Source of the DNA: Cetorhinus maximus | Taxonomy: Eukaryota | DNA length: 64,000 nucleotides | Assembly: GCF_964194155.1 (NCBI RefSeq) | Contig: NC_135901.1 | Coordinates: forward strand, 26,040,001 to 26,104,000 | Reading direction: 5' to 3' | Shown here: one piece after another, positions 1-53,405 of the stretch | Layout: each line of letters begins with the position of its first letter | Numbering within the stretch: position 1 is the stretch's first letter | Program-made: the position numbers and the translations under genes | The notes under the pieces: generated by a model | What the model was told of the DNA's origin: nothing | The model's input: the letters and a program-made list of their open reading frames with translations, nothing else | Databases searched by the model: none

Positions 1-1
1 A

Positions 2-469
2 TTCACAGATCCATCCACCCTGCTGAAGCACCAGAGTGTTCACACTGACGAGAGACCTTTTAAATGCCCAGAGTGTGGGAAGTGCTATAAAAGTTCCCGG
101 GAACTGATGTCCCATCAACGTGTTCACACTGATGAGAAACCTTTTAAATGCCCAGACTGCGGGAAGTGCTATAAAAGTTCCGGGGACCTGATGCGCCATC
201 AACGTGTTCACACTGATGAAAGACCATTCAGGTGCTCTCACTGTGGGACTGGGTTCAGGGGATTAGAACAACTCACTGCACACCAGCGAATTCACACTGG
301 CGAGAGACCGTTCACCTGCGTTATGTGTGGGAAGGGATTTACTCAGTCATCCACCCTGCGGACACACCAGCGTGTTCACACTGGGGAGAGACCGTTCACC
401 TGCCCTGACTGTGGGAAGGGATTCACCACCTCATCCACCCTGCTGAAACATCAGCGAGTTCACAGGTAA
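2..469 (+). CDS. C2H2 zinc-finger gene ZF1, 3' part (5' end lies outside the window)
   Basis: Open frame from base 2 to TAA at 467-469; tandem CxxC-x12-HxxxH fingers with TGERP/TDERP linkers. Confidence 0.85.
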
Positions 470-654
470 CTATGGTGATGGTATTTTGCTGTTTATCACA
501 TCCTGGACTGAACCATGTTCATTGGCATCTGTTGCTGCTGATATTCATAAACTCCAGCCCAGTCATATGGATTAATTGTATGGATAAAAGTCAAATAAAT
601 CAGCTTTGTGTTAAACATAGCGTGTTGAATCTTTTTAATATCTCAAACATAAGT

Positions 655-2155
655 TAGTTCCTTTTGAAGGGCTCTCCCTCTCCCCTGTCTCCTCCATCCT
701 CACCTCCAACAACAAGTCTGAGGAGCTCATGGAGCATCTTTGTCCCTAAGATTGAGACAATCTGATCAGCTGCCTCTGCTACTTCCCTCCCTTCCACTAG
801 CGCACTGGGCAAAACTGTTTCTGAAGTCCCCCCTTGTCCGAGCCCTGATCTCACATCTTTGTCCAGTTTCGCTCCTATCTTCTATTTCCCTCAGAGCTCA
901 CCTTATCCATGAGACCTGCCTTCTGCTCCCTTGATCCTATTCTCACTAAACTGCTGACCATCCAGCTTCCACGTTTTAGCTGATCGTGTTGGCAGTTCTC
1001 TGTCTCTTCTGGTTCTGTCCCTCACCTTTAAATCCACCGTCATCACCCATCATTACAAAAACAACCTTTGAACTCACCAGCTTTGCAAACTAATGCCCCA
1101 TCTCCAATTCTCCTTTCCTCTCCTTGGGAGTCTCCCCAAGGATCAATCCTTGGCCCTTCCTATTTCTCATCTACATGCTGCCACTAGGTGACATCATCCA
1201 AAAGCACCGTGTTAGTTTTCACATGTACACTGACAAAGGCCAGCTCTACCTCACCACCATCCCTCTTCATTCCTCCACTGTTACTAAATTATCAAACTGC
1301 TTATCCCACACCCAGTACTGGATGAGCAGAAATTTCCTCCAATTAAAAATTGGGAAGACCAGAACCATTGTCTCAGTCACCACTACAAATTCCGTTCCCT
1401 AACTACCGAGTCCATCCCTCTCCCTGGGAACTGTCTGAGGCTGAACCACACTCTTCACAATTGTGGTGTCAGATTTGACCCCAAGATGAGTTTCTGACCA
1501 CATATCTACACCATCACTAACACCAGATATTTCAACCTCCATAACGTCGCCTGTCTCCACCCCACCCCAGCTCATCTGCTGCTGAAACCCTCATCCATGC
1601 CTGTGTTACCTTTAGACTTGGCGATTCCAATACATTCCTGACCAGCCTCTCACATTCACCCCACCCCCACACGGAAATGTGAGATCATCCAAAACTCTGC
1701 TGCCCATGTGCTTTCTCACACCAAGTCCCGTTCACCCTTCACCCCTGTGCTCACTGACCTACATTGGCTCCTGGTCAAGTAATGCCTCGATTTTAAAATT
1801 CACATCCTCATTTTCAAAACCCTCCATGGCCTCATCCCTCCCATCTCTGTAATCTCCAGTTTCACACCCTCTGAGATAATCTGTGCTTCTCATTCTGACC
1901 TCTTTAACATCCCTGATTTTAATTACTCCACGATTGGTGGCAGGGCCTAGGCATGAAGCTTTGAAATTCCCTCCCTAAATTCTCCATCTCTTTCCTGATT
2001 GAAGATTCTTGTTCAAATCTGCCTCTCCAATCAATGTTTTTGCCATCCACCTTAATGTTGCCCTATGTGTCAATATTTTCTTTATGAAACTCCTCTAAAG
2101 CATCTTGGGATGTTTTATTACATTAATTATATTATATAAATACAAGTTGTTACTG
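655..2155 (+). mobile_element. Decayed L2-type LINE (RT fragment and 3' end)
   Basis: ORF 1124-1402 reads LFLIYMLPLGDII..VSFHMYTD..WMSRNFLQLKIGKT, typical of L2 RT; L2-like tail near 2100-2155. Confidence 0.75.
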
Positions 2156-2359
2156 TTTCATATCAACCAGTTTGCGCACAGTAAAATTCCAAAAGCAACA
2201 ATCAGACGAGTACCAATTAATCCAGTTCTTTTGGTGGTGTTAGTTAGAACATGAATGTTGGTCGCACTGCACCAGAAGAACTCCCCAGTGGACAGTATGT
2301 GGAGCTGAAAGCCCTTGTATTCATTTAGAACCTTTCACATCCTCAGAACAGTGTCAAGT

Positions 2360-2832
2360 GGGGCGAGGCAGTGGTGTAGTGTCACTACATTGTCACTGGA
2401 CTAGTAATCCAGGAACCCAGGGTAATGCTCTGGGGATCTGGGTTCAAATCCCACCGAAGCAGATGATGGAATTTAAATTCAATAAAAATCTGGAATTAAA
2501 AGTCCAATGACAACCATGAAACCATTTTCATTGTTGTAAAAACCCGTCTGGTTCATTGATGCCCTTAAGGGAAGGAAATCTGCCATCCTTTCCTGGTCTG
2601 GCCTATGTGTGACTCCAGACCCACAGCAAGGTGGTTGGCTTTTAAACACCCTCTGAAACGGCCCAGCAAACCACTTGGTTGTATAAAAAGCGCTAAAAAC
2701 AAGTCAGCACTGTGCGTGTACCTACACTACATGGACTGCAGCAGTTCAAGAAAGCAGCTCACCACCACCTTCTCAAGGGCAATCAGGGATCACCAGTAAA
2801 TGTGACGCCCACATCCCATGAATGAATAAAAA
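2360..2832 (+). mobile_element. tRNA-derived SINE
   Basis: A-box-like TGGTGTAGTG and B-box GGTTCAAATCC; central block also at 23017-23330 and 56050-56200; tail CCCATGAATGAATAAAA matches the LINE tail at about 3351-3400. Confidence 0.75.
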
Positions 2833-2835
2833 CAT

Positions 2836-4746: not shown

Positions 4747-5454
4747 CTACCCACACTCAGAGCTGGTGAATGGCCTCTCCCTAATGTGAACTCGCTGGTG
4801 ATTCTGCAGATTGGAGGACAGACTGAATCCCTTCCCACATTCAGAGCAGATGAATGGCCTTTCCCCGGTGTGAACACGCTGGTGTGTCAGCAGGTTGGAT
4901 GATTGAGTGAATCCCTTCCCACATTCAGAACAGTTAAATGGCCTCTCCCCGGTGTGAACACGCTGGTGTGTCAGCAGGTTGGATGACTGAGTGAATCCCT
5001 TCCCACATGCAGAGCAGGTGAATGGCCTCTCCCCAGTGTGAACTCGCTGATGTGTCCGCAGGCTGGATGATTGCGTGAATCCCTTCCCACACTCAAAGCA
5101 GGTGAATGGCCTCTCCTTGGTGTGAACTCCCTGATGTGCCACTAGGTGGGATGACTGAGTAAATCCCTTCCCACATTCAGAGCAGGTGAATGGCCTCTCC
5201 CCAGTGTGAATTCGTTGGTGATTCCACAGGTCAGATGACTGGAGAAAACGCTTCCCGCACACAGAGCAGGTGAATGGCCTCTCCCCGGTGTGACCACATT
5301 GATGAATCTTCAGTGCAGACGGGGTACAGAATCCTTTCCCACACACAGAGCACGTGAACGGCCTCTCCCCAGTGTGAACACGTCGATGGGTTTCCAGTGC
5401 AGACGGGATCCGGAATCCCTTTCCACAATCCCCACATTTCCATGGTTTCTCCAT
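4747..5454 (-). CDS. C2H2 zinc-finger gene ZF2 (8 intact fingers, 9th broken by a stop)
   Basis: 235-aa ORF starting MEKPWKC; acceptor TTTTGCAG|G at 5769/5770; candidate exon-1 donor GTGAGT at 6706-6701. Confidence 0.8.
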
Positions 5455-6700
5455 GGTGCGGGTTTCCTTATTTCTTTCCAGGTTTGACGATCAGTTGAAG
5501 CCTCATCCACACACAGAACACGTGTACCGTCTCTCCCTGTTATGAATGGTGTGATGCACTGGAATACACTCACTCAGGTCTCTCTGTCTCAGTGATTTTC
5601 CAGTCACACTGATGTTTAAAATCTTTTGGAGCAGACAAAACAGACAAACATTTCTTCTTCTAGATTCAAAGGCCGGTAATATTCAGGTCCCATTGAATCA
5701 GGTGACTGTCAGATTCTTAAGTGACGTTTGGTTTGATAATCTGTCTGCAAATCCGCCCATTCCAATGTCCTGCAAAAGGAGTTTACAAAGGTCATCACTG
5801 TCAGTACAGGATAGAAATTTGGACCAGGCAATTCTAGTTCCTGTGGATCATTCTTTCCACAAAAGCTGTAAATCTCCATCCCACATACTTTCCCTCCATT
5901 CTCACTCTGCCATACCTAATATACACCCTTCCAATTCTCCTGAAGGTGCGAATCCATGCTGGTCGACAGATCCATGCTTACCAGTTCTATATATCTATTG
6001 GAGAAAAACTCATGTAACATAGAATACTGTATTATATGATACATGGGGGATGTGAGGAAGCACTTTATTTAGGAAATGAGTGGTCATGACCTGGAACTCT
6101 CCGCTTAAGAGTGTGGTGGAAGCAGAGGCAATCAATGATTTTAAAATGAAATGGGATGGCACTTGAAGGAAATAAACTTGCAGGGGAATGGGGATATAGC
6201 GGGGGAATGGGACTGACTGACTGAATTGCTTGACAGAGAGTCAGCATTGACTCAAGTTGCCAAATGGATTTCTTCTGTGCTGTAATGACTCTATGACTGG
6301 AAATATACAAAGTAGCTACAGTACTATATCGCAAGACTATAAATAATGACAAATGTACTTTATTACAGAAACATTAATATATCTAATTTTTAGCATATAA
6401 CACTAAATCTGTCCAATATTAATTTACTGTCCCCTTAAATGCCAGCCATCTCCTGGGGAAACCACCCCTTTAATTAGAAACATTAAGAAAGAGGCCATCC
6501 TTTTAGCCAGACAAATAAATGTAGCGAGCTGAGGGAGTAAAGGATGTCACTGCCTTTAAGAGTGAGAGAGACCTGGGCCAACCTTTCCAGAGTCTGCACC
6601 CTCCCTGGATTCACTTCCTTTCCCTTCAGTTCCTGCAAGTCAACAATTTAAACCCATAATGAGAAAAAAAAATGGAAAGGGGGAGAAAATAAAGTGTTTT

Positions 6701-7450
6701 ACTCACAGAAGTGGGACAGAGGAAGAAGTTTTGATGTGTGTGACGCTGAATCTTCATTCAGAGTTTGTTAATCTGCTCATTACAGTTTTGCTGGGCAGTA
6801 ATGAACATGTTCACAAGCTCATTGTCCAACACCCGCATTCAGACAATGGGGGAAGCTCCGTGCAGCCATTAGCACAAAGCCCAATTCAGGTCCACAAGCT
6901 CATCCCATTGGTCAACCCGGTCCGACCACAATGAGGGAGCGTAACCCGTGCCCACGTGGGGCGGGGGTGACTTTGACCTCCAGACGTGCTAAGCTATTGT
7001 CCAATCCGCAGTGTTTTGCTTCTGTAACCAGAGCTATTGCTCCCAATGGGACACTGTGTACTGGGAACGAACCTCTGAGTCATTGTGACGCCCACAATGG
7101 AACACTGGCTGAATCAACCAATAGGAATCACTCTGCTCTGCGGTGACGTCCTCTGCCTGCAGGCCGCGCGGACACGGGAGCCCCGCCCCCACCCCAGCAC
7201 TGCCCCCAGACAAGGTCTTCAGGCAAAAATAAAAATACCTGGAAAAACTCAGCAGGTCCGACAGCATCTACGGAGAGGAACACAGTTAACGTTTCGAGTC
7301 CATATGACTTTTCAACAGAAGGTCTCCAGGCAACCGATGACGGCTCCGGCCAATAGCGAGCGCTGGAATACCGGAAGGACTTTGGTCCTCCACCCAATCA
7401 GAAGATGGGCTTCACACAGACCAAAACTTCCTCCTGTGTCCAGGATATGA
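6701..7450. promoter_or_regulatory. CpG-rich bidirectional promoter with first exons of ZF2 (-) and ZF3 (+)
   Basis: CpG-rich; CCAAT boxes, TGACG motifs and a GC box; exon-1 end motif AAACTTC(C/T)TCCT on both strands; homologous to 16850-17240 and 32657-33030. Confidence 0.65.
7227..7318 (-). mobile_element. Short Penelope-derived insertion with a hammerhead-like motif and ~15-bp TSD
   Basis: Flanked by AAGGTCTTCAGGCAA (7212-7226) and AAGGTCTCCAGGCAA (7319-7333); empty paralogous site at about 32870; matches the end of the Penelope copy at 54724-54880. Confidence 0.75.
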
Positions 7451-7454
7451 AAGT

Positions 7455-8040
7455 TTGTTTGCGTTGAAAAGAAAAAGAGAAACAGGCGGGGTTGAGAGGT
7501 TCAGGTTTTCAGGAGAAAAGGGAATAATTCAGTAACAGAACAGTGAAGCTGTGAGTGGGAGATGGAGAGGAAGGAAGTCTGAGCAGCTGGGAAAAGAAGA
7601 GCAAAAAGGCTGATTGGGGGAATCCAACAGTGAGAGATCCAGAGGCTGTGACTCTTGGGGCTGCCTGTGGAAATGGGCTGTGGGAAGACAGCCCTCTGAA
7701 CGGACTTCAGTCCAACCTCCTGTAGGAGGAAAGGAACTGAATGTATACCTTGGAAATACAGAGAGTTGTGGGACTCTGTAACTGGAATTAGTGTCAAATA
7801 TGCTGAAGGGGGAATTTCTTGTGATTTTGTGGAAGAAGCTTTTATTGTGCAAGCTATTTAAAGTGAAATTTAGCTCTTATTATAAAAACTTTTTTAATGC
7901 ATGCTTCATTTATGCTGATTTTAGTTTGATACAGTAAAAGTTAAAAGTGAAACCTTGCCCTTTGGTTTATTCCGTTGGGGTTGTCTGGGAATTTGTTTCT
8001 TTTTATTTTAAGGTTATCGTTCTCCATGGGGATTGTAACA
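7455..8040 (+). mobile_element. LTR-like insertion in the ZF3 intron
   Basis: Ends in GGGATTGTAACA; absent from the ZF2 and ZF6 introns; same junction in reverse at about 15258. Confidence 0.45.
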
Positions 8041-8623: not shown

Positions 8624-9489
8624 GATATTGGAAGGAGAGGATCTGAAGTCAGAAATCTCAAAACAAGCATCACATTAAGATCTGACAGAGTCACTCAATT
8701 AATTGCAATGTGAATATCATTGGCCTTTGAATCTAGACAGAGACATGTTTGTCTGTTCTGTCTCTTCAAAAGGTTTAAACATCGGTATGACTGGAAAAGC
8801 ACTGAGACACACACACCCGAGTCAGTGTGCTCATGTTAAGCAGCCTGAAAAAACATCACACCATTCACAGTGGTGAGAGACTGTACACGTGTTCTGTGTG
8901 AGGATGAGGCTTCAACTGATCATAAAAACTGGAAGGACAAAAGGCAACCCGCACCAGGGAGAAACTGGATATGTGGGGATTGTGGGAAGGGATTCAAAGC
9001 CCCATCTGAGCTGGAGATTCATCGACGCAGTCACACTGGGGAGAGGCCGTTCACCTGCTCCGTGTGTGGGAAGGGATTCACTAAGTTATTCAATCTGCTG
9101 ATACACCAGAGAGTTCACACTGGGGAGAGGCCATTCATCTGCTCCATGTGTGGGAAGGGATTTGTGGAGTCATCCAGCTTCCGGAGACACCAACGAGCTC
9201 ACATTGGGGAGAGGCCGTTCACCTGCTCTGTGTGTGGGAAGGGATTCAGTGAATCATCCACCCTGCAGAAGCACTGGGCGGTTCACACTGGGGAAAGGTC
9301 ATTTACCTGCTCTGTGTGTGGGAAGGGATTCACTCAGTCAACCAGTCTGCGGACAGACCGACGCGTTCTCACTGGGGAGAGGCCTTTCACCTGCTCCGTG
9401 TGTGGGAAAGGATTCACTGAGTCATCCAACCTGCTGAGTTAGCATGGCAGTCACACCGATTGAGACTTTTTAAATACTCTGACTGTGGG
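8624..9489 (+). pseudogene. Disrupted C2H2 zinc-finger gene ZF3
   Basis: Acceptor TTTTACAG|G at 8623; MEKPW start changed to AGG (8956); about 6 fingers with lost His residues; TAG at 9440; 3' end replaced by an LTR element. Confidence 0.75.
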
Positions 9490-12352: not shown

Positions 12353-13676
12353 TCAGTCCTGGATGTGATTAACAGCAGCAATAACAGCAGAATCCAACCC
12401 CTGCAGTCACTTGTGAACTCGCTGCCATGCCTGCAGGTTGGATGATGTTCTAAATCTCTTCGCACAGCGAGAGCAACTGAACGGACTCTCCTCAGTGTGA
12501 ATGCACTGGTGAGCCATCAGGTCCCGAGAGCTTTTGAAACAACTCCCACAGTCAGAGCATTTGAAAGGTCTCTCATTGGTGTGGGTGACATGGTGTCTCA
12601 GCAGGCTGGACGATGTACTGAATCCCTTCCCACATACACAGCACGTGAACGGCCTCTCCCCTGTATGAACTCGCTGGTGTGTCAGCAGGGTGAATGAGTC
12701 AGTGAATCCCTTTCCACACGCGGAGCAGCTGAACAGCCTCTCGGTGTGAACTCACTGGTGCCTCAGCAAGGTGGGTGAATCTCTGAATCCATTCCCACAC
12801 TCGGAGCAGGTGAACAGCCTCTCCTCGGTGTGAATTCGTCGACGTGTCAGCAGGGTGGATGAGTCAGTGAATCCCTTTCCACACACGAAACAGATGAACG
12901 GCCTCTCACCATTGTGAACTCACTGGTGCCTCTGCAGGGCAGATGAATCTCTGAATCCCTTCCCACATTCAGAGCACGTGAACGGCCTCTCCCCAGTGTG
13001 AATTTGCTGGTGTTTCCGCAGGGTGGAATGATCACTGAATGCCTTCCCACACTCAGGGCAGGTGAATGGCCTTTCCCCGGTGTGAGCACGCTGGTGCGTC
13101 TGCAGGCTGGATAACTGAGTAAAACCCTTCCCACACCCTGACCAGGTGAATGGTCTCTCCCCAGTGTGAACTTGCTCGGCTTGCATAGGATGGATGAATC
13201 ATTGAATCCTTTCCCACACTCAGAACAGGTGAACAGCCTCTCCCTGCTATGAATGAGTTTCCAGCTGACATGGGAATCTGCATCCCTTCCCACAGTCCCC
13301 ACAATCCCACACTTTCTCCATGGTGCCAATGGCCTTCTTTCTCTGCAGGTTCGGTGATCAGTTGAAGCCTTGTCCACACACACAAGTGTACAGTCTCTCC
13401 CCACTGTGAATGGTGTGATTTTTTTTTTCTGGCTGTGTAACCGGTTAAAGCTCTTTCCACAGTCAGTGCACTGGAACTGAGGTGAGTGTGTCTTGGTGCT
13501 TTTCCAGTCAAAGATATGTTTAAAACCTTTTGAAGCAGACGGAACAGACAAACATTTCTTCTTCTAGATTGAAATGCTATTGGTATTCAGGTCCTGAAGA
13601 ACCAAGTGACTCTGTCAGATCTTGATGTGAAGTTTGTTTTGAGATTTGCGTCTTCAAATCCTCACCTTCTAATATC
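12353..13676 (-). pseudogene. Frameshifted C2H2 zinc-finger pseudogene ZF4
   Basis: About 11 finger units with frameshifts and stops; conserved acceptor AG mutated to TG (13677-13678); exon-1 donor GTGAGT at 16707-16702. Confidence 0.8.
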
Positions 13677-15257: not shown

Positions 15258-15550
15258 GTTGTTACGATCCCCTTAAAATAAACAAATTCCCAGACAACCC
15301 CCAACGGAATAAACCTAAGGATAAGGTTAACTTTTAAAACTTTTACTGTAACAATCAAATTAAAATCAACATACATGAAACCTGCATTAACAGACAAACA
15401 GGATTTGAGTAGACAGGATAAATTTGACTTTAAAAAGTTTATACAATAAAAACAGGTTCCACAAAATCACAAACATTTTCCCCCTCAGCATATTTGGCAC
15501 TAATTCCGGTTACAGAGTCCCACAACTTTCTGTATTTCCCAGGGGAGGGA
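15258..15550 (-). mobile_element. LTR-like fragment (same insertion as 7455-8040)
   Basis: Reverse-complement similarity to about 7740-8040 with the same intron junction. Confidence 0.45.
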
Positions 15551-15555
15551 AAGAA

Positions 15556-16680
15556 AGCATCTGCCCTCACGCCTTCTCCTCCCTCCCAGAAACATGATAG
15601 GGTCCCCTTTGTCTTCACTTATCACCCCACCAGCCTCCGCATTTAAAGGATCATCCTCCGCCATTTCCGCCAACTCCAGCATGATGCCACCACCAAACAC
15701 ATCTTCCCTTCACTCCCCCCGGCGGTATTCCGTAGGGATCGTTCCCTCCGTGACACCCTGGTCTACACCTCCATCACCCCCTACTCCTCAACCCCCACCT
15801 ACGGCACCTCCCCATGCAAACGCAAAATATGCAACACCTGCCCCTTCACTTCCTCTCTCCTCACCGTCAAAGGGCCCAAACACTCCTTTCAAGTGAAGCA
15901 GCTTTTCACTTGCACTTCCCTCAACTTAGTCTACTGCATTCGTTGCTCCCAATGCAGTTTCCTCTACATTGGAGAGACCAAACGCAGACTGGGTGACTGC
16001 TTTGCAGAACACCTTCGGTCTGTCCGCAAGCATTACCCAGACCTCCCTATCGCTTGCCATTTCAACACTCCACCCTGCTCTCTTGCCCACATGTCTGCCC
16101 TTGGCTTGCTGCATTGTTCCAGTGAAGCTCAACGCAAACTGGCAGAACAGCACCTCATCTTCCGACTAGGCACTTTACAGCCTTCCGGACTGAATATTGA
16201 GTTCAACAATTTTCGATCTTGAACTTTCTCCTCCATCCCCATCCCCTTCCCGTTTCTTCCCCCTCCTTTTTGTTTTTTCCAATAATTTATATAGATTTTT
16301 CTTTTCCCACCTATTTCCATTGTTTTTAAATGTATTTCCACCCATTGTTTATTTCTACCTTTTAGTATTCCCCCACCCCAACTAGAGCTATCTGTACCTT
16401 GCTTGTCCTGTTTTCTACTCTTAATTCGCACATTCTCTTAGATAATATCACCACCTTCAACACCTCATTGTTCTTTTGTCTGTGTTCTTTTGGTTATCTC
16501 CACCTATTACTGGCTGCTTGTCACCACAACCCATCCACCCACCCCCCCCACCCCACCCCCCCAAACCAGCTTATATTTCACCCTTTTCCTATCTCTTAGT
16601 TCTGTTGAAGGGTCATGAGGACTCGAAACTACTGCCAGACCTGCTGAGTTTTTCCAGGTATTTCTGTTTCTGTTTTTGTT
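15556..16680 (+). mobile_element. 5'-truncated Penelope-like element (GIY-YIG endonuclease and pLTR)
   Basis: ORF 15893-16222 reads FTCTSLNLVYCIRCSQCSFLYIGETKRRL..EH..HFN..LGTLQPSGLN; hammerhead-like motif at about 16599-16629. Confidence 0.85.
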
Positions 16681-16701
16681 GTGAGGGAAAGAAAGTGTTT
16701 T

Positions 16702-17240
16702 ACTCACAGATGTTAGACAGAGGAGGAAGTTTTAGTGTCTGTGTGAAGTTAATAACAAATGTTGTATTGTTTAAAATCAAACTTGAAAGAAAATGAGTGG
16801 AAGACATTTTGTGAGCTGCACTCCCTCTGCGGGCAGCCCAGCGCGCAGGCGCAGAAGGGGCTGCTGACCCGAGCTGTCTGGAGCACGCGCAGTGCAGCTG
16901 CCGCTAGCGGTCGCTCTCGATCTATTTTTGGACCAGCCGCCGTAGTCAGTGGGGGGAGGGGGAATTCGCCGAGCGGCTTCTCGCTCTGGCCGGTGCCGTC
17001 AGCCGGTTGCCTGGAAACCTTGGCTCGAGGAGATGCAGGGGGAGCGGGAACAATGGGTGGGGGCGGGGCTCCAGTGTCCGCGGGCCTGGCCTGCAGACTG
17101 GAACCCGAAGACGTCACCGCGGAGCAGAGTGATTCCTATTGGCTGATTCAGGCATGGTGTTCCATTGTGGACGTCACAATGCGGAAGTTGGACAATGAGC
17201 TTCAGACTAAAACTTCCTCCTCTGGGCATCATCTGTGAGG
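16702..17240. promoter_or_regulatory. CpG-island bidirectional promoter with first exons of ZF4 (-) and ZF5 (+)
   Basis: Donors at 16707 (-, GTGAGT) and 17235 (+, GTGAGG); NRF1-like GCGCAGGCGCA, GC box GGGGCGGGGC, reverse CCAAT, GACGTCA and ETS-like GCGGAAGT. Confidence 0.7.
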
Positions 17241-17914
17241 AAATCAATGTTTCCCCCTTTCCATTTCTTTTCTAATTCTGGGCTTAAATTGTTGACTTGC
17301 AGGAACTGAAGGAAATGAAGTGAATCCAGGGAGGGTGCAGACTCTGGAAAGGTTGCCCCAGGCCTCTCAATGAAAGGGGTGGTTTGTCCAGGAGTTGCCC
17401 GGTATTTAATGAGACAGTACAGTCAGAGAGACATTGAGTATTGCTGTAAAAAGAGAGATTCTGTCGAAGCTTTTCATTTGCACGCATCAGAATAGATGCT
17501 AGAATGTCAAATTTCAAAGGGAACAATAATTCATATTGTAAAACAGTGAGCTGATTGTTTTGCAAGTGTACTCAGGTCACGTTGTTGCTTTGGGGTATGC
17601 ACCAGGGAACAATCATGGCTAGCTTTTAATTAAATTCAGAAAATCCGAGTCAAATCCAGTTGGTTGAGAGATGCCACTGGGGGAAACGACAAGGAATAGT
17701 TGTCCATGTAGCTTTTGTTTAATTGAAAAGCCACAATGCCTCGACAAATTCATTTTCCCTGCTGAGGACCAGGCCCAATATAAGATTATCAGTTGGACTC
17801 ACAATGTGGCTCACTTATACTTGCTAGAAGGTCCATTTGTCCCTATTCTGGGTCCGGTCCACTACTCGCAAAGGAATTTTTCAGGAAGTCTTGCTACAGC
17901 TGCACAGGGCATTG

Positions 17915-33059: not shown

Positions 33060-33175
33060 AAAAACAAAAAAACTGCGGATGCTGGAAATCCAAAACAAAA
33101 AATAAAAAATACCTGGAAAAACTCAGCAGGTCTGGCAGCATCGGCGGAGAAGAGTACAGTTGACGTTTCGAGTTT
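33060..33175 (-). mobile_element. Penelope pLTR fragment
   Basis: AACTGCGGATGCTGGAAATCC..AAAACTCAGCAGGTCTGGCAGCATC matches 54730-54850. Confidence 0.7.
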
Positions 33176-33469
33176 ATTTTTTATTTTTAGTTTACTCTAT
33201 GTCTTCCCTTTATTTTCTCCCACGTCATGTTGTTTGATTTTAAATAGCACCACATTTGTTTTTAGCTTCACAAACGAGGATATCAATGGACTGGTCAGGT
33301 GGGCAGAGCAGTAGCAAATGGAATTCAACCCGGAAAAGTTTGAATTAATGCACTTGGGGAGGGCTAACAAGGCAAGGGATTACACTGTGAATGGCAGGAC
33401 CATGGAAAGTACTGAAGGTCAGAGGGACCTTGGTGTGCATACCAGAGGTAACTGTGTGGGAACAGGTAG

Positions 33470-34582: not shown

Positions 34583-35545
34583 CTATTCAGCATGAATCTG
34601 TTGATGGGACATGAGTTCCCAGGAGTTTTTATAGCATTTCCTGCAGTCTGGGCATTTAAAAGGTCTCTCCCCAGTGTGAACCTTCTGGTGTCTCTGCAGG
34701 TTGGTTGAACTAATGAATCCCTTCCCACACACGGGGCAGGTGAATGGCCTCTCCCCAGTGTGAACTCGCCGATGCCTCAGCAAGCTGAATGACTGAGTGA
34801 ATCCCTTCCCACATGCTGAGCAGGTGAATGGCCTCTCCCCAGTGTGAACACGTTGGTGGGTCAGCAGGTTGGATGAATTACTGAATCCCATCCCACACTC
34901 GGGACAGGTGAATGGTCTCTCTTCAGTGTGAACTCGCTGGTGTCTCAGCAGGCTGGATGACTGAGTAAATCCTTTCCCGCACTCCGTGCAGATGAACGGC
35001 CTCTCCCCAGTGTGAGTTCTCTGGTGTTCAGTGAGGTCAGATGATCGCCTGAACCCAGTCCCGCAGTGAGAGCACCTGAACGGTCTCTCATCAGTGTGGA
35101 TACGTTGATGGTACATCAATTCACCTGAACTTTTATAGCCCTTCCCGCAGCCCGGACATTTAAATGGTCTCTCCTCAGTGTGAACACGCTGGTGTGCCAT
35201 GAGGTGGCACGTCCGAGTGAATCCCTTTCCACATCTGGTGCAGGTGAACGGCCTCTCCCCAGTGTGAACACACTGGTGCCGAAGCAGGTGGGATGAACGA
35301 GTAAATCCCTTCCCACACTCTGAGCAGGTGAACGGCCTCTCTCCAGTGTGAAAGTGCAAATGAGATTCCAGCTTAACAGGACAATTCAATCGCTTTGCAC
35401 AGTCCTCACATTTCCATGGTTTCTCCGTGGTGCGGGTGTCTTTGTGTCTCTGCAGGTTGGATGAAAAGTTGAAGCTTTGCCCACAGACAGAACATGTGTA
35501 CGGTTTCTCTCCGCTGTGAACGGTGCTTTTTCCTTCCATGTTCAC
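34583..35545 (-). CDS. C2H2 zinc-finger gene ZF7 (MNMEGKS type; 10 fingers, last two lost behind an in-frame TAG)
   Basis: 320-aa ORF; acceptor TTTCACAG|G at 35649/35650; decayed fingers continue to about 34420. Confidence 0.75.
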
Positions 35546-41290: not shown

Positions 41291-41854
41291 GAGGTGGGGA
41301 TGGAGGAGACAGGGGAGAGGGATAGCACTTCAAAAGGAACTAACATGTGTTATAGATATTTTAAATAATAAACACACCTTGTGTTTAACACAAAACTGAT
41401 TTATTTGACTTTTGCTGTGGGGGACACACACTAAATCCAGTAGTTGAGAGTGATTAACAGGCTGGCTTTTGTGTTTATTGATCCTGGGAGTGTTACAGAT
41501 ACCTTCCCAGGATCCCAAGGCCAGGAGAGACATTCTGGAAGGTATGGGGAGCTGGGAATTGTCCATGAGAGTAACCGAAGGTATGAGAACTGAAATAATC
41601 TTGAGTTAGAAAGGAAAAAAGACGCAAAAAAGCAGCAGTCAGTATCAGGACATCAATTATTCTCCTCTTATCTTAGAGAAATTAAGGACACGACACTCTG
41701 TGTTTCAAACAACATGAATATCTTGAGATCTGTCAAATGAATCAAACTTCAGCCCAGTTACATGGTTATTAACATCAGCCCAACTGTCAGAATGAACCTG
41801 GTTGTCCTGTATGTGATTAACAGCAGTGATAACAGCAAAATCCAACCCCTTTGT

Positions 41855-42620
41855 TCAATTGTGAACTCGCTAGTGCCTCATTAAGTGGGATGAATGAGTG
41901 AATCCCTTCCTACACACAGAGCAGGTGAACGGCCTCTCCACAGTGTGAACTCGCTGGTGTCTCAGCAGAACACCTGTGGTTTTAAAAGTCTTCTCACATT
42001 TTGAACATTTGAAAAGTCTGTAATCAGTGTGAACAATGATGTGAATTGAGGTGAGCTAGACAAGTGAATCCCTTCCCACATGTGGAGCAGGTGAATGACC
42101 TCTCCCCTGTGTGAATACACTGGTGCATCAGTAGATCCCTTGTAGTTTTAAAGCTCTTCTCACAGTCAGAACATTGGAAAGGTTTCCTAATAGAGTGAAC
42201 TTGCTGGTGCAGCTTGAGGTTGGTCAAACAAATAAAACCCTTCTGGCAGATGGAGCAGGTAAACGGCCTCTCCTCAGTGTGAACTCACTGGTGTCTCAGT
42301 AGATCACCTGCAGTTTTAAAGCTCTTCTCACATTCTGAACATTGGAAAGGTCTGTTATCAGTGTGAACAAGTTGGTGTGACCTGAGGTGAGATAGTCGAG
42401 TGAATCCCTTCCCACACATGGTGCAAGTGAGTGTGAACTTGCTGGTGTTTTATGAGGTTCAGTGATTGTCTAAACACTTTCCCACAGTGAGAACAACTAA
42501 CTGTCTCTCAGTGTGAACAAACTGGTGCTTGACCAGGTCCTCTCGTCTTTTAAAGCTCTTCTCACAATCAGAGCAGTTAAACAGCCTCTCATCAATGCGA
42601 ACTAGCTGGTGTCTCAGCAG
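41855..42620 (-). pseudogene. Zinc-finger pseudogene ZF8 (5'-truncated)
   Basis: About 9 finger remnants (FQCSDCEKSFKT..) with stops and deletions; family 3' block follows. Confidence 0.8.
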
Positions 42621-44164: not shown

Positions 44165-47100
44165 ATAGAAACAAAGAAACTAGGAGCAGGAGTAGGCCAT
44201 TGGGCCCTTCGAGCCTGCGCCGCCATTCATTATGATCATGGCTGATCATCCAGCTCAATAGCCTGCTCCCACTTTCTCCCCTTATCCTTTGATCCCTTTC
44301 ACCCCAAGAGCTATATCTAACTCCTTCTTGGAAGCATACAATGTTTTGGCCTCAACTACTTTCTGTGGTAACAAATTCCACAGGCTCACCACTCTCTGGG
44401 TGAAGAAATTTCTCCTCATCTCAGTCCTAAATGGTCTACCCCATATCCTCAGACTGTGATCCCTGCTTCTGGACTCCCCCACCATCAGGAACATCCTTCC
44501 TGCGTCTACTCTGTCTAGTCCTGTTAGAATTTTATAGGTTTCTATGAGATACCCCCTCATTCTTTTGAACTCCAGCGAATATAATCCTCACTGACTCAAT
44601 CTCTCCTCATATGTCAATCCCGCCATCCCAGGAATTAGTCGGGTAAACCTTCACTGCGCTCCCTCCATAGCAAGTACATCCTTCCTCAGATAAGGAGACC
44701 AAAACTGCACACAATATTCCAGGTGTGGTCTCACCAAGGCCCTGTACAATTGCAGGAAGACATCCCTGTTCCTGTACTCGAATCCTCTGGCTATGAAGGC
44801 CAACATACCATTTGCCTTCTTTACCGCCTGCTGCACCTACATGCTTACCTTCAGCAACGGGTGTACGAGAAAACCCAGGTCTTGTTACGCATTCCCCTCT
44901 CTCAATTAATAGCCATTCAGATAATCATCTGCCTTCCTGTTTTTGCTACCAAAATGGATAACCTCATATTTATCCACATTATGCTGCATCTGCTATGCAT
45001 TTGCCCACTCACTCAGCTTGTCCAAATCACACTGAAGCATCTCTGCATCCTCCTCACAGCTCACCCTCCCACCCAGCTTTGTGTCATCTGCGAATTTGGA
45101 GACATTACATTTAGTTCCCTCATCTAAATCATTAATATATATTGTGAATAACTAGGGTCCCAGCACCGATCCCTGCGGTACCCCACTAGTCACTGCCTGC
45201 CATTCGGAAAAAGACCCGTTTATTCCTACTCTTTGTTTCCTGTCTGCCAACCAGTTTTCTATCCATCTCAATACACTACCCCCAATCCCATGCGCTTTAA
45301 TTTTACACGCCAATCTATGTGGGACTTTGTCGAAAGCCTTCTGAAAGTCCAAATAAACCACATCCATTGGCTCCCCCTCATCAACTCTACTCGTTACATC
45401 CTCGAAAAATTCCAGTAGATTTGTCAAGCATGATTTCCTTTTCATAAATCCATGCTGACTCTGTCCAATTCTGCTACTGTTTTCCAAGTGCTCAGCTATT
45501 AAATCTTCTATAATGGACTCAGAATTTTCCCAAGTACCGATTTCAGGCTGACTGGTCTACAATTCCCTGGTTTCTCTCTACCTCCCTTTTTAAGTATTGG
45601 GGTTACATTAACTACCCTCCAATCTGTAGGAACTGTTCCAGAGTCTATAGAATCTCGGAAGATGACCACCAATGTTTTCACTATTTCTAGGGCCACTTCC
45701 TTAAGTACTCTGGGATGTAGGTTATCAGGCCCTGGGGATTTATTGGCCTTCAATCCCATCAATTTCCCCAACACTATTTCCCTACTAATTCTGATTTCTT
45801 TCAGTTCCCCCCTCTCACTAAACCCTGTGTTCCCCAACATTTCTGGTATGTTACTTGTGTCCTCCTTTCTGAAGACAGAACCAAAGTATTTATTTAGTTG
45901 GTTAGCCATTTCTTTGCTCCCCATTATAAATTCTCCTGTTTCTGACTGTAAGGGACCTACATTTGTCTTCACCAATCTTTTTCTCTTCACATACCTACAG
46001 AAACTTTTACAGTCAGTTTTTATGTTCCCCGTAAGCTTACTCTAGTACCCTATATTCCCCTTCTTAATCAATTGCTAGGTCCTCTTTTGCTGAATTCTAA
46101 ACTGCTCCCAATCCTCAGGTCTGTTACGTTTTCTGGCCAATTTGTATGCCTCTTCCTTGGATATCATACTATCTCTAATTTTCCTTGTAAGCCATGGTTT
46201 GGCCACCGTTCCTATTTTGCTTTTGCACCAGAGAGGAATAAACAATTGCTGCAGTTCACCCATGCACTCTTTGAATGTTTGCCATTGCCTATCCACCCTC
46301 ATCCATTGAAGTAATGTTTCCCAATCCATCATAGCCAACTCACGCCTCATACCATCATAGTTTCCCTTATAAAGATTCAGGACCCTAGTCTCAGAATCAA
46401 CTACGTCACTCTCCATCTTGATGAAGAATTAATTCATATTATGGTCGCTCATCCCCAAGGGGCCTCGCACAACTAGATTGCCAATTATTCCTTTCTCATT
46501 ACATAATACCCAGTCTAGGATGGCCTGTTCTCTAGCTGGTTCTTCAACGTATTGGTCCAGAAAAACATCCCGTACACACTCCAGGAATTCCTCCTCTATG
46601 GTATTGTTACTGATTAGATTTGCCCAATCGATATGCAGATTAAAGTCACCCATAATTACAGATGTTCCTTTATTGCATGCGTCTCTAATTTCCTGTTTAA
46701 TGCCATTCCCAACATCACCACTACATTTTGGGGGTCTATATACAACCTCCACTAACGTTTTTTGCCCCTTAGTGTTTCTCAGTTCTACCCATACAGATTC
46801 CACACCGTCGGAGCTCATATCTTTCCTTACCATTGCGCTAATTTCCTCTTTAACCAGCAATGCAACTCTGCCTTTTCCTTTTTGTCTGTTCTTCCGAAAT
46901 ACTGAATATCCCTGGATGTTCAGTTCCCATCCCTGGTCAACCTGCAGCCATGTCTCCGTAATCCCGGCTATATCATACCTGTTTACATCTATTTGCGTGG
47001 TTAATTCATCCACTTTATTGTGAATGCTCCTCGCGTTAAGGCATAAAGCCTTAAGGCTTGTCTTTTTAACATTACTTGTCCCGTTCCCACTATTTTTCAC

Positions 47101-47990
47101 TGAGGGCCTGTTTGATTCTTGCCCTTGATTTCTCTGCCTATCACTTTTCTTATTCCCCTTTCTGTCTTTTGTTCTTGTCCTTGATTCCCCCTCCTCTGAC
47201 TGCTTGCATAGGTTCCCATCCCCCTGCCATTTTAGTTTAAACCCTTCCCAACCACTCTAGCAAATGTTCCTCCTAAGACATCAGTCCGGGTCCTGCCCAG
47301 GTGTAACCCGTCCAGTTTGTACTGGTCCCACCTCCTCCAGAACTGGCCCCAATGTCCCAGGAATCTGAAACCCTCCCCTTCACACCATCTCTTCGGCCAC
47401 GTATTCATCCGACATATCCTGCTATTTCTACTCTGACTAGCACGTGGCACTGGTAGTAATCCTGAAATCACTACCTTTGAGATCCTACTTTTCAACTTAC
47501 TTCCTAACCCCCTATATTCTGCTTTTGGGACTTCATCCCTTTTTTTGCCTATGTCGTTTGTACCAATGTGTACCAGGACCACTGGCTGTTCACCCTCCCC
47601 CTTCAGAATGTCCTCCAGCCGCTCTGAGACATCCTTGACCCTAGCACCAGGGAGACAACATACCATCCTGAAGTCTCGTTTGCGGCCACAGAAATGCCAA
47701 TTTATTCCCCTTCCAATTGAATTAATTATTGCATTCCCACACTTTTTACTCTTCACCAGTGCAGCAGAGCCAACCACGGTGCAACGAATTTGGCTGTTGC
47801 TGCTTTCCCCTGAGAGGCCATTCCCTTCAACAGTATCCAAAGTGGTATATCTGTTTTACAAGGCAATAGCCACAGGAGATTCCTGCACTGTGTGCCTAGT
47901 CCTCTTGCTCTGCCTGATGGTCACCCATTCCCTTCCTGTCTGTGGACTCTTAGCCTACGGTGTGACCACCTCTCTATGATACTCTCCGCC
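44165..47990 (-). mobile_element. Near full-length CR1 LINE with a disrupted ORF2
   Basis: ORF1 esterase, APE (GITETW, MGDFN, SDH), RT (DFQKAFD, GVPQGSVLGP), C-terminal domain and 3' tail, in the expected order. Confidence 0.92.
47232..47840 (-). pseudogene. CR1 ORF1p SGNH esterase domain
   Basis: VCCLPGARV..VHIGTND..DGLHL motifs. Confidence 0.8.
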
Positions 47991-48241: not shown

Positions 48242-49190
48242 TCATTTGTGAACTCGCTGGTGCGTCAGCAAGTGAGATGATCGAGCAAATCTCTTCCCAC
48301 ACACAGAGCAGGTGAACGGCCTCTCCCCAGTGTGAACTTGCTGGTGTGTCAGCAGGTTTGATGACTGAGAAAACCCCTTCCCACACACAGAGCAGGTGAA
48401 TATCTTCTCCCCTGTGTGAACCCGCTGATGTGTCACCAGGTTGGATGATGAAGTGAATCCCTTCCCACACACGGAGCAGGTGTACGGCCTCTCCCCGGTG
48501 TGAACTCGCTGGTGTTGAATGAGGTGAGGCGATTGTCTGAATCTCTTCTCACATTGAGAACAACTGAATGGTCTCTCGTCAGTGTGAACAAGCTGGTGTT
48601 TAATTAGGTCCGGTGAGATTTTAAAGCCTTTCCCACAGTCAAAGCATTTAAAAGGCCTCTCGTCAGTGTGAACTCGCTGGTGTAACTGAATGCTGGACAT
48701 CAGAGTGAATCCTTTCCCACACACGGAGCAGGAGTACGGTCTCTCCCCAGTGTGAGTGCGTCGATGAGCTTCCAGCTGGGATGGGCAAGTGAATCCCTTC
48801 CCACACTCCCCACATTTCCACGGTTTCTTTGTGGTCTCAGTGTCCTTGTATCTCTCCAGGTTGGACGATCAGTTGAAGCCTCATCCACACACAGAACACA
48901 TGTACAGTCTCTCCCCACTGTGAATGTTGTGACGTTATTTCAGGCTGTGTAACTGGTTAAAGCTCTTTCCACAGTCAGTGCACTGGAACGCTCTCACTCG
49001 GGTGTGTGTCTCGGTGCTTTTCCAGCCACACTGATGCTTGAAATCTTTTCCCACAATCAGAACAAACATTTCTCCTTCGACATTCAAAGACTGAAGATAT
49101 TCTGGTCCTGATGAATCACATGACTCTGTCAGATTGTGATGAAATGTTTGGTTTGAGTTTCCCATCTTCAAATCATCTCCTTCTAATATC
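48242..49190 (-). pseudogene. C2H2 zinc-finger gene ZF9: 7 open fingers but start codon lost
   Basis: Frame open from TKKPWKC to VHK*; ATG replaced by ACA; acceptor ACAG|G at 49190/49191; upstream intron replaced by repeats. Confidence 0.65.
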
Positions 49191-50648: not shown

Positions 50649-51986
50649 TCAATCCTGAACATGATTAACAGCAGTGATAACAGCAGAATCCAACCCCTGC
50701 AGTCACTTATGAACTCACTCATGTGTCACTAGGTTGAAGGACCGAGTGAATCTCTTCCCACACACGGAGCAGGTGAATGGTCTCTCTCCAGTGTGAACTC
50801 TCTGATGTGCCAGGAGAGCAGATGAACACCTGACACTCTTTCCACAGTCCGTGCCGCTGAATGGCTTCTCCTCAGTGTGAATTTGCTGGTGTGACTCGAG
50901 GGCGGATGATACAGTGAATCCCTTCCCACATACAGAGCAGGAGAATGGTTTCTCCCCAGTGTGAACTCGCTGGTGTGCAATGAGGGTGGATGACTGCCTG
51001 AAACTCTTTCCACAAGAAGTGCAGCTAAACGGCTTCTCCCCAGTGTGAACTCGCTGGTGTCTCAGCAGACTGGATGACTGAGTAAATCCCTGCCCACACA
51101 CAGAGCAAGTGAACGGCCTCTTCCCAGTGTGAACTCGCTGGTGTTCAGCAAGGGCAGAGGAATGCCTGAAACTCTTTCTACAGGAAGTACAGTTGAATGG
51201 CTTCTCCTCAGAATGAACTTGCTGGTGTGACCTTAGGCCGGATGAATGAGTGAATCCCTTCCCACACACAGGGCAAGTGAATGGCTTCTGCCCAGTGTGA
51301 AGTCGCTGGTGTATATGGAGGTCAGATGAAGACCTGAACCTCTTTTCACAGTAAGTGCAGCTGAACGGCCTCTCCTCAGTGTGAATTCGCTGGTGCAACA
51401 TAAGACAGGATGTCTGAATAAATCCCTTCCCACATACAGGGCAGGTGAATGGCCTCTTAATGTGAATTCGCTAGTGTGACATGAGTTTGGTTGTCTGAGT
51501 GAATCCCTTCCCACACACGGAACAGGTGAACGGCTTCTCCCCAGTGTGAATGCATCGATGGATTTCCAGCTGAGATGGATAATTGAATCCTTTACCACAA
51601 TCCTCACATTTCCATGGTTTGTCCATGGTGCCGGAGTCCTTATATCTCATCAGGTTGGACGATCAGTTGAAGCCTCATCCACAAGCAGAACACATGTACA
51701 GTCTCTCCCCACTGTGAATGGTGTGATGTTTTTTTCAGGCTGTGTAACTGGTTAAAGCTCTTTCCACAGTTAGTGCACTAGGACACTCTCACACGGGTGT
51801 GTGTGTCTCGGTGCTTTTCCAGTCACACTGATGTTTGAAATCTTTTCCCACAGACAAAACAAGTATTTCTCCTTCCACATTCAATTGCCGATGATATTCA
51901 GGTCCTGATGAATCGAGTGACGGTTTTAAATCTTGATGTGAAGTTTGATTTGAACTTCTCTCTGTAAATCTTCCCCTTCTAATATC
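50649..51986 (-). pseudogene. Disrupted C2H2 zinc-finger gene ZF10
   Basis: MDKPWKC start; TAG plus frameshift after finger 2 (about 51455-51475); open array 50715-51401; TGA in the last finger; acceptor at 51986/51987. Confidence 0.75.
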
Positions 51987-52249
51987 CTGCATAAGGAGTT
52001 TACAAAACTCTTGACTGTCAGCACAGCCTAGAAATTCAGAACAGACAATTCTAGTTTCTATGGACCATTTCTTCCTCTCTTGTTCCCCCAAACCTGTAAA
52101 TCCCCGCCACACACACTCTCCCTCCTCCCTGGGCTGAAATCCAAACCCATCTCCACCATTTTTTTCCTCCACTCCCAGTTTTCTCCCTCCCTCTCCTCTG
52201 CCTGGGTTCAGTTCTCCAGCTCCTGTCTGCAGACTGACAATAAAATCAA

Positions 52250-52620
52250 TGAGTCTCGTTGGGGGTTTGGGGCCTCCAGCGGGTGTTTCTGAATCCTCCC
52301 CGCCCACCTCCTCGCTCTGACTCCGCTTCTTCGGGACAAACTGGCGCCTCTTCCCGCAAGGCCATCAATCGCATTGCGCATGCTCCAGACTCTTCGACAC
52401 TGCGCCTGCGCACTGGCGCCTCTTCCCGCACTGGCCTCAACAGCCACACTGCGCATGCTCCAGCTCACGGTGCTCGCCTGATTGACAGCATCTCCGGACC
52501 AATAGAAAAAGGGGGCGTGGCTGGGAAACAGAACTTGAGAGGCTGGTTCTTCAACCAATCGGAGTGAATGAGGGGCGAATGAGTCCGGATCTTCCTCATT
52601 GGCTGAAACTGCATCACTTT
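52250..52620. promoter_or_regulatory. CpG-rich promoter of ZF10 (possibly divergent to ZF11)
   Basis: Three NRF1-like TGCGCATGC/TGCGCCTGCGCA motifs and three CCAAT boxes. Confidence 0.6.
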
Positions 52621-53077
52621 GAAAGTTGATTTGTCTCAAACTCCAGGAGAAAACTGGACCTTTCTGTTTGTGGCTTTAAACAGATGAAACCCTGTGGGTG
52701 TGGAGCAAACATTTCAACATTTGTTAGTGAAAATTGGGAACATGATGAAACAATGCACAAACAATTCAAGGGCTGACTTAAAGTGATAATTGGGCAGACA
52801 GGGAATGTCATCATTAGAACAAGGAGAGTCCCTTGTTTCAATAAATGAACCAACAGAGCAGTTAAGACAGGTTACAGAGAAGGTCTTCTCTCTGACAGGA
52901 TTTCCTTTTGGCTCTTTCACCATGTTCACCTTCATTGTTTTCCATTTCCCACCTGGTGTTTGACAAGGTGTTCACCAAAACTCAAACATAACCATTAACA
53001 CTCACACTGTCTTGTGTCCATGACGTCTTGTCAAATTTATCCTTGGCTCCCATCTGTCCTGACCTTCTACTTTGCTT

Positions 53078-53405
53078 CACCTGTTCGCACTGGGGAGAGG
53101 CCATTCATCTGCTCCGAGTGTGGGATGGGATTCATTCGGTCAAGCACCCTCATTTCACTCCAGCTTGTTCACACTGATAAGAGAACATTTAAATGTTCTG
53201 GCTATGACAAGAGCTTTAAATACAAAAGGGAACTGCTGAGGCACCAGCGCACTCACACTCGGGAGAAGCCTTTTACATGATCCGTATGTGGGTAGCCATT
53301 TAATCTATCATCTACCCTGCTGAGATGATAGATTATCAATGAATTCACAAGTGACTGCAAGCCTTGGATTCTGTTCTTATTTCTGCTGCTAATCCACTGA
53401 ACTGA
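53078..53405 (+). pseudogene. Zinc-finger relic ZF11 (last three fingers and 3' block)
   Basis: [12 protein letters not shown]..; followed by the ZF1-type 3' flank and L2 piece (53650-54060). Confidence 0.7.

Follow-up and report, generated by a model that had tools for sequence, protein, structure and literature searches.

A Cetorhinus maximus cluster of finger-only C2H2 zinc finger genes with a conserved cap finger

What are the clustered C2H2 zinc finger genes of sharks, and which part of their products could silence anything? KRAB families are reported missing from cartilaginous fish (PMC8455134; PMC11603059), yet some 700 to 3,600 poly-finger ORFs are found in sharks and a skate (703-3586 ORFs of at least five fingers, alongside 66,000-242,000 retroelement ORFs; PMC10547256 supplement), and no description of such genes was found in the literature searched. 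We analyzed a 64,000-nt window of Cetorhinus maximus, meaning the whole stretch of DNA under study, that holds a cluster of these arrays. The best explanation, toward which we lean with a little less than even confidence, is a long-standing family of the shark lineage, made up of finger-only poly-C2H2 genes that undergo birth-and-death evolution and often sit in head-to-head pairs.

A sequence-only reading of the window had counted about 11 homologous finger units, from intact to relic, in 53 kb. Our census bears this out, with 11 units on both strands of positions 1..53405. Four contain complete ORFs. U2 (4747..5454, minus strand) encodes 235 aa with 8 fingers, U5 (19069..20274, plus) 401 aa with 14 fingers, among which fingers 3-6 are duplicated as 7-10, U6 (27703..28683, minus) 326 aa with 11 fingers, and U7 (34583..35539, minus), a type A unit, 318 aa with 10 complete fingers and a dead finger after the stop. 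The 5' end of U1, a type A array of five fingers (2..469, plus) with a 3' flank homologous to U7, is lost at the window edge. U9 keeps an open seven-finger frame in exon 3 (48242..49190, minus), where the family start codon is replaced by ACA. The five broken units have decayed in different ways: U3 (exon 3 at 8624..9442, plus) lost its start codon and carries a frameshift ahead of finger 1; U4 (exon 3 at 12407..13676, minus) has an altered acceptor AG, frameshifts, and stops; U8 (41852..42600, minus) is a 5'-truncated relic with frameshifts and stops; a stop in finger 2 breaks the frame of U10 (exon 3 at 50700..51986, minus); and U11 (53083..53405, plus) is a relic with only 3' fingers and the 3' flank. 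A canonical product is possible from at most 5 of the 11 units. Under a strict finger pattern, U1-U10 contain 85 fingers and U11 none; 74 of the 85 are stop-free, with 65 distinct fingerprints at helix positions -1, +2, +3, and +6.

The genes are laid out as a CpG-rich first exon followed by a single finger exon whose 5' portion is a leader made of a spacer and two or three dead fingers. Such leaders precede the coding sequences of U2 (5455..5769, minus; non-coding), U5 (18714..19068, plus), and U6 (28684..28940, minus). Farther upstream, U2 has an exon 1 (6707..6985, minus) and a candidate exon 2 of 50 nt bounded by AG and GT (6583..6632, minus). In contig 26 of run X7, positions 6706-6985 are joined to 5496-5766, at most 3 nt from the predicted donor and acceptor, and the candidate exon 2 is skipped; this splice evidence is a single contig, from a run that is only guessed to be RNA. 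Contigs of the RNA-like runs also cross introns, and their summed depth, which equals neither copy number nor expression level, was left unused. U5 has a candidate exon 2 of 49 nt (17303..17351, plus), and U6 has two copies of promoter, exon 1, and exon 2, the proximal one (30886..31500, minus) 85% like that of U2 and the distal one (32543..33250, minus) 84% like that of U5. Two regions probably serve as shared promoters: the CpG-rich sequence between the head-to-head units U2 and U3 (6700..7500) and a CpG island that contains the exon-1 donors of U4 (minus) and U5 (plus) (16700..17250).

This anatomy determines where the proteins begin. In all five units checked (U2, U5, U6, U7, and U10), an in-frame stop lies inside exon 3, respectively 13, 13, 20, 17, and 13 codons upstream of the start, so translation must begin within the finger exon. 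The type-B leaders are themselves eroded: six of the seven units share a TGA at one site, all six that retain a second site have TGA there too, and every one of the seven carries at least one frameshifting indel. Leader divergence is about that of the adjacent intron (76-81% versus 77%). We considered whether the shared TGAs might be read through or decoded differently and rejected both, because CGA, TGA, and CAA coexist at these sites and the leaders contain frameshifts besides. A conserved effector peptide in the leader was rejected as well, given its intron-like divergence and the lack of a Pfam match; Rfam returned 0 matches. The proteins are finger-only and lie behind a non-coding leader of dead fingers. 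Models that join exon 1 to exon 3 contain 3-12 upstream ATGs, so translation may be low.

KRAB, SCAN, and BTB sequences, which the earlier reading had not seen, match none of the 228 upstream stop-free stretches of at least 40 aa at a Pfam cut-off of E 0.05, while the positive control, P0001, gave KRAB at E 3.7e-21. At the same cut-off there was no Pfam match to a SCAN-, BTB-, or ZAD-type N-terminal domain. The ORFs of U2, U5, U6, and U7 are C2H2 fingers alone, and the best 25 of 45 Pfam matches for U5 and the best 25 of 32 for U7 are finger-type or cysteine-rich models, with no effector among them. Among leader-bearing relatives, 19 were scanned out of 36 retrieved, and these yielded no effector family. 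An upstream exon encoding a known effector domain, which the earlier reading had named as evidence against itself, was not found. Because the in-frame stops in exon 3 block fusion of an upstream exon at the conserved acceptor, the absence of an effector is firmer than it was from reading the sequence alone, and we consider it highly probable that no separate effector domain exists. It is very improbable that these are true effector-plus-finger genes, with an unrecognised effector exon reached through a cryptic acceptor, or with functional members elsewhere in which exon 1 plus the spacer persists as an N-terminal domain. In type-A relatives P0125, P0141, P0148, P0150, and P0152, spacer and fingers share a reading frame, the start of P0146 resembles the sequence read from exon 1 in U5 and distal U6, and a short pyrimidine-AG directly follows the U7 upstream stop. 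Yet the 34 leader-profile matches, judged by eye, share no common N-terminus, the spacer is broken in six of eight aligned window copies (the exceptions being U6 and U9), and in U2, U5, U6, and U10 the interval from stop to start lacks a pyrimidine-rich acceptor.

That anatomy narrows the silencing question. With probably no separate effector encoded, the sole constant surface to consider belongs to a single finger in which three or four residues are fixed. This cap finger, the first finger in type B and the second in type A, occurs in U5 (F1, 19081..19149, plus), U2 (5374-5442), U3 (8966-9034), U6 (28603-28671), U7 (35348-35416), U9 (48752-48820), and U10 (51546-51614). Trp, Pro+1, and Glu+5, residues chosen after their invariance was seen, are all present in 7/7 window copies; the combination of Pro+1 with Glu+5 occurs in 0/78 internal fingers and 0/1055 other fingers. 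Cap fingers of shark-type relatives have Pro+1 in 11/12 cases and Glu+5 in 10/12. Among 10 relatives, Arg+8 is replaced by Gln in two and by Trp in one. At +8, the CpG codon CGA is retained in six of seven cap copies, and the leader's CGA codons have decayed into TGA or CAA. The conserved cap finger is a new observation. A PDB sequence search returned generic finger arrays, with no cap-signature finger among the alignments listed, and an ESM Atlas search with the first 60 residues of U5 found generic C2H2 clusters only. A two-copy complex prediction for the first two fingers scored 0.00 and gave no answer. One could propose, though rather doubtfully, that the outer face of the cap (Trp, Pro+1, Glu+5, Arg+8) docks a common cofactor in place of KRAB or FiNZ; alternatively, the proteins would act by steric occlusion. 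The cap may also be merely an inherited finger class, since the class of U7 finger 4, whose fingerprint is that of a Pristiophorus finger, persists as well. If the cap is inert, nothing sets the cluster apart from other cases of poly-finger birth and death.

The family extends to other sharks. A profile of the leader found 34 matches among 1.84 billion representatives; eight of ten leader matches are named, and all eight come from two sharks. Gene models of Pristiophorus japonicus and Heterodontus francisci have the same leader, the same cap finger, and the same two start types, and the window genes are members of their family. The proposal of a lineage-restricted zinc finger family with no known effector is supported, for a poly-C2H2 family that shows birth and death. 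The gene models bear only automatic names (zinc finger protein 239-, 271-, 530-, or ZFP2-like), and our literature search found no paper describing this shark finger family. Other queries were less discriminating: among 120 matches listed for the full-length protein, only one was a named shark protein, generic finger proteins swamping the rest, and the N-terminal region gave three candidates, one of them an unrelated fish protein.

The cluster had also been described as rapidly turning over, which the data do not show. Over intron and leader, identity within the type-B group of seven units is 75-82% for all 21 pairs, and near-identical duplicates are found only among the fingers within U5. The paralogs in the window are old rather than recent.

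The earlier description of a constant scaffold with variable DNA contacts holds in part. Entropy per column drops to 0 bits at the Cys and His ligands, stays low at Leu+4 (0.21) and Phe-3 (0.35), and reaches 3.1-3.2 bits at -1, +3, and +6. However, non-contact columns are equally variable (3.16 bits at +5 and 3.07 bits at the second Cys-x-x-Cys spacer residue), and +2 is mostly Ser (52/74 fingers). Moreover, the strings quoted as contact residues (QSSH, DSSN, RLST, HSSA, QSTN) are actually helix positions -1, +1, +2, and +3, not -1, +2, +3, and +6. Selection at the contacts, for which a test had been suggested, proved borderline. Omega at contact sites, estimated under a model free of recombination between fingers, is 1.68-1.89; the value of 1.68 was reached by 0/36 neutral simulations and the scaffold-paired value by 4/36, and with all-nucleotide pairing the likelihood ratio (2.3) is not significant. 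We discarded a first estimate (omega 2.62, p 2e-5), since scaffold-site pairing inflates omega (null mean 1.34); under that pairing, broken genes (3.97) exceed intact ones (2.62), which indicates method bias. Non-contact sites also score high, with omega of 1.66 at the Cys-x-x-Cys spacer and 1.33 at +5. The fold has been under purifying selection (scaffold omega 0.16-0.27), and change at the recognition positions is either unconstrained or weakly favoured.

These results bear on whether the cluster is simply a drifting amplified family, one that grew through segmental duplications amid repeat-rich DNA, with neutral fingerprints, a minority of members ever selected for the fold, a cap that is the ancestor's finger, and no target-specific surveillance. 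Such drift would fit the 6 of 11 units that are broken or start-less, a contact omega that non-contact sites match and that does not clearly exceed the simulated null, and the long leaders rich in upstream ATGs. It would also fit the leader's occurrence in Pristiophorus gene models that are fusions with histone genes, in the manner of a widespread repeat. The low scaffold omega argues the other way, as do three type-B ORFs of 235-401 codons that stay open behind leaders that are 20-25% diverged and carry stops and frameshifts, and the fact that decay ends at the cap finger. On balance we regard drift as a possible but rather doubtful account.

In the best explanation, the variable fingers would read DNA, and across many members most of the sites bound would be repeats, making the family a repeat-occupying repertoire; we find this plausible, though not quite an even bet. 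Functional finger-only proteins aimed mainly at other targets, be it gene promoters, satellites, RNA, or the family's own genes, are unlikely. Binding to satellites, promoters, and other ZNF genes is common among KRAB-ZNFs, ZAD-ZNFs apparently do not target transposons (PMC10547256), and the one fingerprint common to U7 and a Pristiophorus protein fits a stable target. By contrast, the 65 fingerprints in 74 fingers and the numerous dead copies agree with a changing set of targets, and counts of ZNFs and retroelements correlate across animals (PMC10547256). A bolder extension of the repeat-occupying reading, which we consider improbable, is that sharks may have, genome-wide, hundreds to thousands of finger-only transposon silencers whose first finger recruits a co-repressor, the ancestral head having been lost, new start codons having arisen in the finger exon, and the cap having been kept as the sole fixed part.

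Among known systems, the KRAB-ZFP genes of tetrapods and lobe-finned fish likewise form tandem clusters with pseudogenes and have a long C2H2 array in one exon, HTGE(K/R)P linkers, a constant scaffold, and variable helix residues. The window genes differ in having neither KRAB nor an in-frame upstream coding exon, and TRIM28 binding, H3K9me3 deposition, and transposon binding are further traits of KRAB-ZFPs. FiNZ genes resemble it as a lineage-restricted, KRAB-less fish expansion with a common N-terminal family signature (PMC10547256). However, gene anatomy sets the two apart: the cyprinid FiNZ signature, an acidic domain of 28 residues, has an exon to itself (PMC10547256), while that of the window genes is a zinc finger in the finger exon, and their named leader relatives are from two sharks, not cyprinids. 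Positive selection, embryonic expression, and repression have been shown for FiNZ (PMC10547256); contact-site selection in the window is borderline. ZNF-only polydactyl genes of vertebrates likewise encode C2H2 fingers and lack KRAB, SCAN, and BTB, but in humans they are mostly old and tetrapod-conserved (PMC3971581), whereas the window family is multi-copy, includes dead members, and has a fixed cap finger.

The retroelements around the genes had been called diverse. Non-LTR pieces do occur (RVT_1 at five places, an endonuclease, and a GDSL-esterase ORF), but no LTR-type domain was detected in 175/175 non-finger ORFs of at least 75 aa; the same 175 ORFs gave no transposase or integrase match. 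Having retroelements close by does not demonstrate targeting. The background includes a decayed, nearly full-length non-LTR retroelement with esterase ORF, endonuclease, and reverse transcriptase (44174..47979, minus). A fragment inside the U4 intron (15477..16676, plus), which we take to be Penelope-like, has a weak GIY-YIG match (E 0.029) and a second copy at 54776-55477. On the question of a finger-carrying transposon, the finger units retain introns and sit head to head. An inverted repeat (40189-40460/43121-43390), considered as transposon ends, was taken instead to be homologous intron sequence from gene copies that face opposite ways.

The C2H2 zinc-finger family in the window is real and shark-wide. 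Six-frame translation located arrays at ten places within 1-51650, and self-comparison of the window added an eleventh unit, a relic at 53083-53405, so that the roughly 11 homologous units in 53 kb described in the sequence-only reading were all recovered (U1-U11, numbered along the window). Four are open from their start codons: U2 (235 aa, 8 fingers), U5 (401 aa, 14 fingers), U6 (326 aa, 11 fingers), and U7 (318 aa, 10 fingers). U9 has an open frame with ACA at the site of the others' ATG, U1 is truncated at the window edge, and U3, U4, U8, U10, and U11 are broken. Since homology between units runs on through introns, promoters, and 3' flanks, the units are DNA-level duplicates, and a retrocopy origin is ruled out. 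Exon 1 is CpG-rich and ends in a conserved donor; it is followed by a candidate exon 2 of 49-52 nt and by exon 3, the finger exon, which begins at a conserved acceptor. Head-to-head pairs surround CpG-rich regions (U2/U3 and U4/U5). For U2, at least one contig from a sequencing run that is only guessed to be RNA links 6706-6985 to 5496-5766 in a splice-like join whose ends fall within 3 nt of the predicted splice sites 6707 and 5769; the contig (depth 10) has 41 differences from the window over 552 nt and may stem from a processed copy in DNA. Two subtypes can be distinguished. In type B (U2-U6, U9, and U10) the start codon lies in a former linker, immediately 5' of a conserved "cap" finger, while in type A (U7, plus U1, U8, and U11 by 3' flank) it lies one finger earlier.

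Relatives were found among sharks. Among the 120 protein matches listed for U7, the best by identity (60%) is from Pristiophorus japonicus and opens with the first finger of U2, U5, and U6. A profile of the exon-3 leader, the noncoding part of the finger exon ahead of the start codon, matched 34 proteins among 1.84 billion representatives, and 10 among 830 candidates. Eight of these 10 are named, four from Pristiophorus japonicus (Squalomorphii) and four from Heterodontus francisci (Galeomorphii), so the poly-C2H2 family appears to span both shark clades, in line with the lineage-specific family proposed earlier. Two Pristiophorus gene models (P0122 and P0126) fuse the leader to histone H2A and H2B models, which suggests that histone genes are interspersed with the family in that species.

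The absence of KRAB, SCAN, and BTB noted previously was upheld. Neither these domains nor ZAD were found by Pfam in any of 228 sense-strand stop-free stretches of at least 40 aa upstream of U2-U11, in a scan that detected a positive-control KRAB (E 3.7e-21). More decisive are in-frame stops, which lie 13 (U2, U5, and U10), 17 (U7), or 20 (U6) codons before the start and, in all five units, inside exon 3; no sequence spliced to the conserved acceptor can therefore fuse to the fingers. A hidden head, that is, an effector exon joined by another route, is thus very improbable, with a cryptic acceptor between stop and start plausible, on sequence grounds, only in U7. Of 36 distinct leader-bearing relatives, 19 were scanned, and any match that rose above noise was finger-type. 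The leader itself consists of a spacer and two or three dead fingers. In type B, TGA occupies one site in 6/7 units and another in all six that keep the site; at other sites CGA, TGA, and CAA coexist, as is characteristic of CpG decay. Relative to the consensus, every one of the seven type-B leaders has one or more frameshifting indels, and leaders are 76-81% identical between units, compared with 77% for the intron. Three named shark gene models (P0122-P0124) terminate one residue ahead of the first shared leader stop, suggesting from protein models that this stop is old.

The finger arrays are varied. By a strict pattern, U1-U10 contain 85 fingers; the 74 that are free of stops show 65 distinct fingerprints. 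Ligands and core residues are near-invariant and positions -1, +3, and +6 are variable (entropy about 3.1-3.2 bits), as had been claimed, but +5 and one spacer residue, which are not base-reading positions, are equally so. The tetrads earlier quoted as DNA-contact residues are in fact helix positions -1 to +3. A codon model that lacks finger shuffling, fitted to 44 internal fingers of intact genes grouped into 22 independent pairs, demonstrated purifying selection on the finger fold (scaffold omega, 0.16-0.27). At -1, +3, and +6, omega was 1.89 under scaffold-based pairing (likelihood ratio, 14.2) and 1.68 under all-site pairing (likelihood ratio, 2.3), values matched by 4/36 and 0/36 neutral simulations, respectively, through the same pipeline. 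Yet omega was similar at noncontact positions (spacer, 1.66; +5, 1.33) and, under scaffold pairing, higher in broken than in intact genes; given also the missing shuffling, positive selection at contact positions is possible but not established. Drift as the source of this variability is a rival reading that we consider rather unlikely. Nor is rapid turnover supported. Outside the coding part, all 21 type-B unit pairs are 75-82% identical; this is an old cluster, in which the only recent changes are the duplication of four fingers within U5 and the death of genes.

The cap finger carries a constant set of residues. All seven recognizable first fingers have Pro+1 and Glu+5, and their first aromatic position is Trp. 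Pro+1 with Glu+5 is absent from the 78 other window fingers and from 1,055 fingers of the 120 other proteins listed by the protein searches, mostly tetrapod by name; in cap-type fingers of shark-type relatives, Pro+1 is kept in 11/12 and Glu+5 in 10/12. The Pro and Glu codons vary silently. CGA (Arg+8) is retained in 6/7 cap fingers, where a single CpG change would yield Gln, the +8 residue of 62/74 stop-free fingers. Positions +1, +5, and +8 share one helix face, pointing away from bases, and the cap finger's own DNA-contact positions are variable. This pattern is consistent with a fixed surface for protein binding. Three points count against that reading: the residues were picked post hoc, Arg+8 occurs in just 7/10 relatives, and a second finger class is conserved among sharks with its contacts included (U7 finger 4 versus P0125). 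That finger (35096-35158) has a fingerprint identical to a Pristiophorus finger and belongs to a distinct class, also found in U1, which is an old conserved class inside otherwise variable arrays. The sole internal finger with Pro+1, U2 finger 2 (5281-5358), copies the cap finger's helix start, probably through partial duplication.

Taken as a whole, our tentatively preferred explanation, which we hold at slightly less than even confidence, is that the products are finger-only putative DNA-binding proteins, encoded behind leaders with 3-12 upstream ATGs, whose internal fingers would read varied sequences. For a large family, the most frequent targets would be repeats (by extension from PMC10547256), and repression, if any, would act via the cap finger or occlusion. 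Tables in PMC10547256 count 703-3586 poly-finger ORFs in five shark assemblies, 1223 in skate, and 475 in chimaera, figures that cover every such ORF and not this family alone. Its binding predictions treat seven species, sharks excluded, and its main text has no word beginning "shark" or "cartilaginous." Our search of the full-text literature, outside which most subscription papers lie, found no description of the family. Its anatomy is apparently new, a variation on lineage-specific poly-C2H2 expansion, and it belongs to neither the KRAB-ZFP nor the FiNZ-ZNF family. A putative transposon-surveillance role is plausible; that the targets are something other than transposons seems improbable to us, and retroelement proximity is uninformative on targeting. 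The diverse retroelements reported among the genes were borne out by reverse-transcriptase matches (3930, 10445, 45155, 49969, and 58045), an endonuclease and an esterase ORF (46432-47855), and a weak GIY-YIG match (15647), but not by any LTR-type domain in the 175 nonfinger ORFs of at least 75 aa. By sequence appearance, we take these elements to be CR1/L2, RTE, Penelope, and Tx1.

Several other features were observed. An insertion of about 850 bp in the U4 intron (14308-15163), missing from the homologous U3 intron, has TG...CA ends and near-matching 4-bp flanks and is possibly a solo LTR. The U6 intron holds 29 copies of a 27-bp tandem unit (29220-30004; 90% matches), open in three frames with no meaningful Pfam match. 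A single tRNA-Thr(AGT)-like call (23025-23113) overlaps a repeat also present at 2361-2530 and is thus probably a tRNA-derived SINE head. U6 has two tandem promoter/exon 1/exon 2 blocks (30560-33250), one U2-like and the other U5-like, which implies that two gene copies underwent a deletion or rearrangement between them. At 38300-38720, the exon-3 acceptor region recurs several times, in either orientation and not followed by a finger array; these copies are remnants of additional units. Finally, the promoter-like region that precedes U10 has an inverted 84% copy at 60057-60303, beside a 200-base assembly gap beyond which the cluster may continue.
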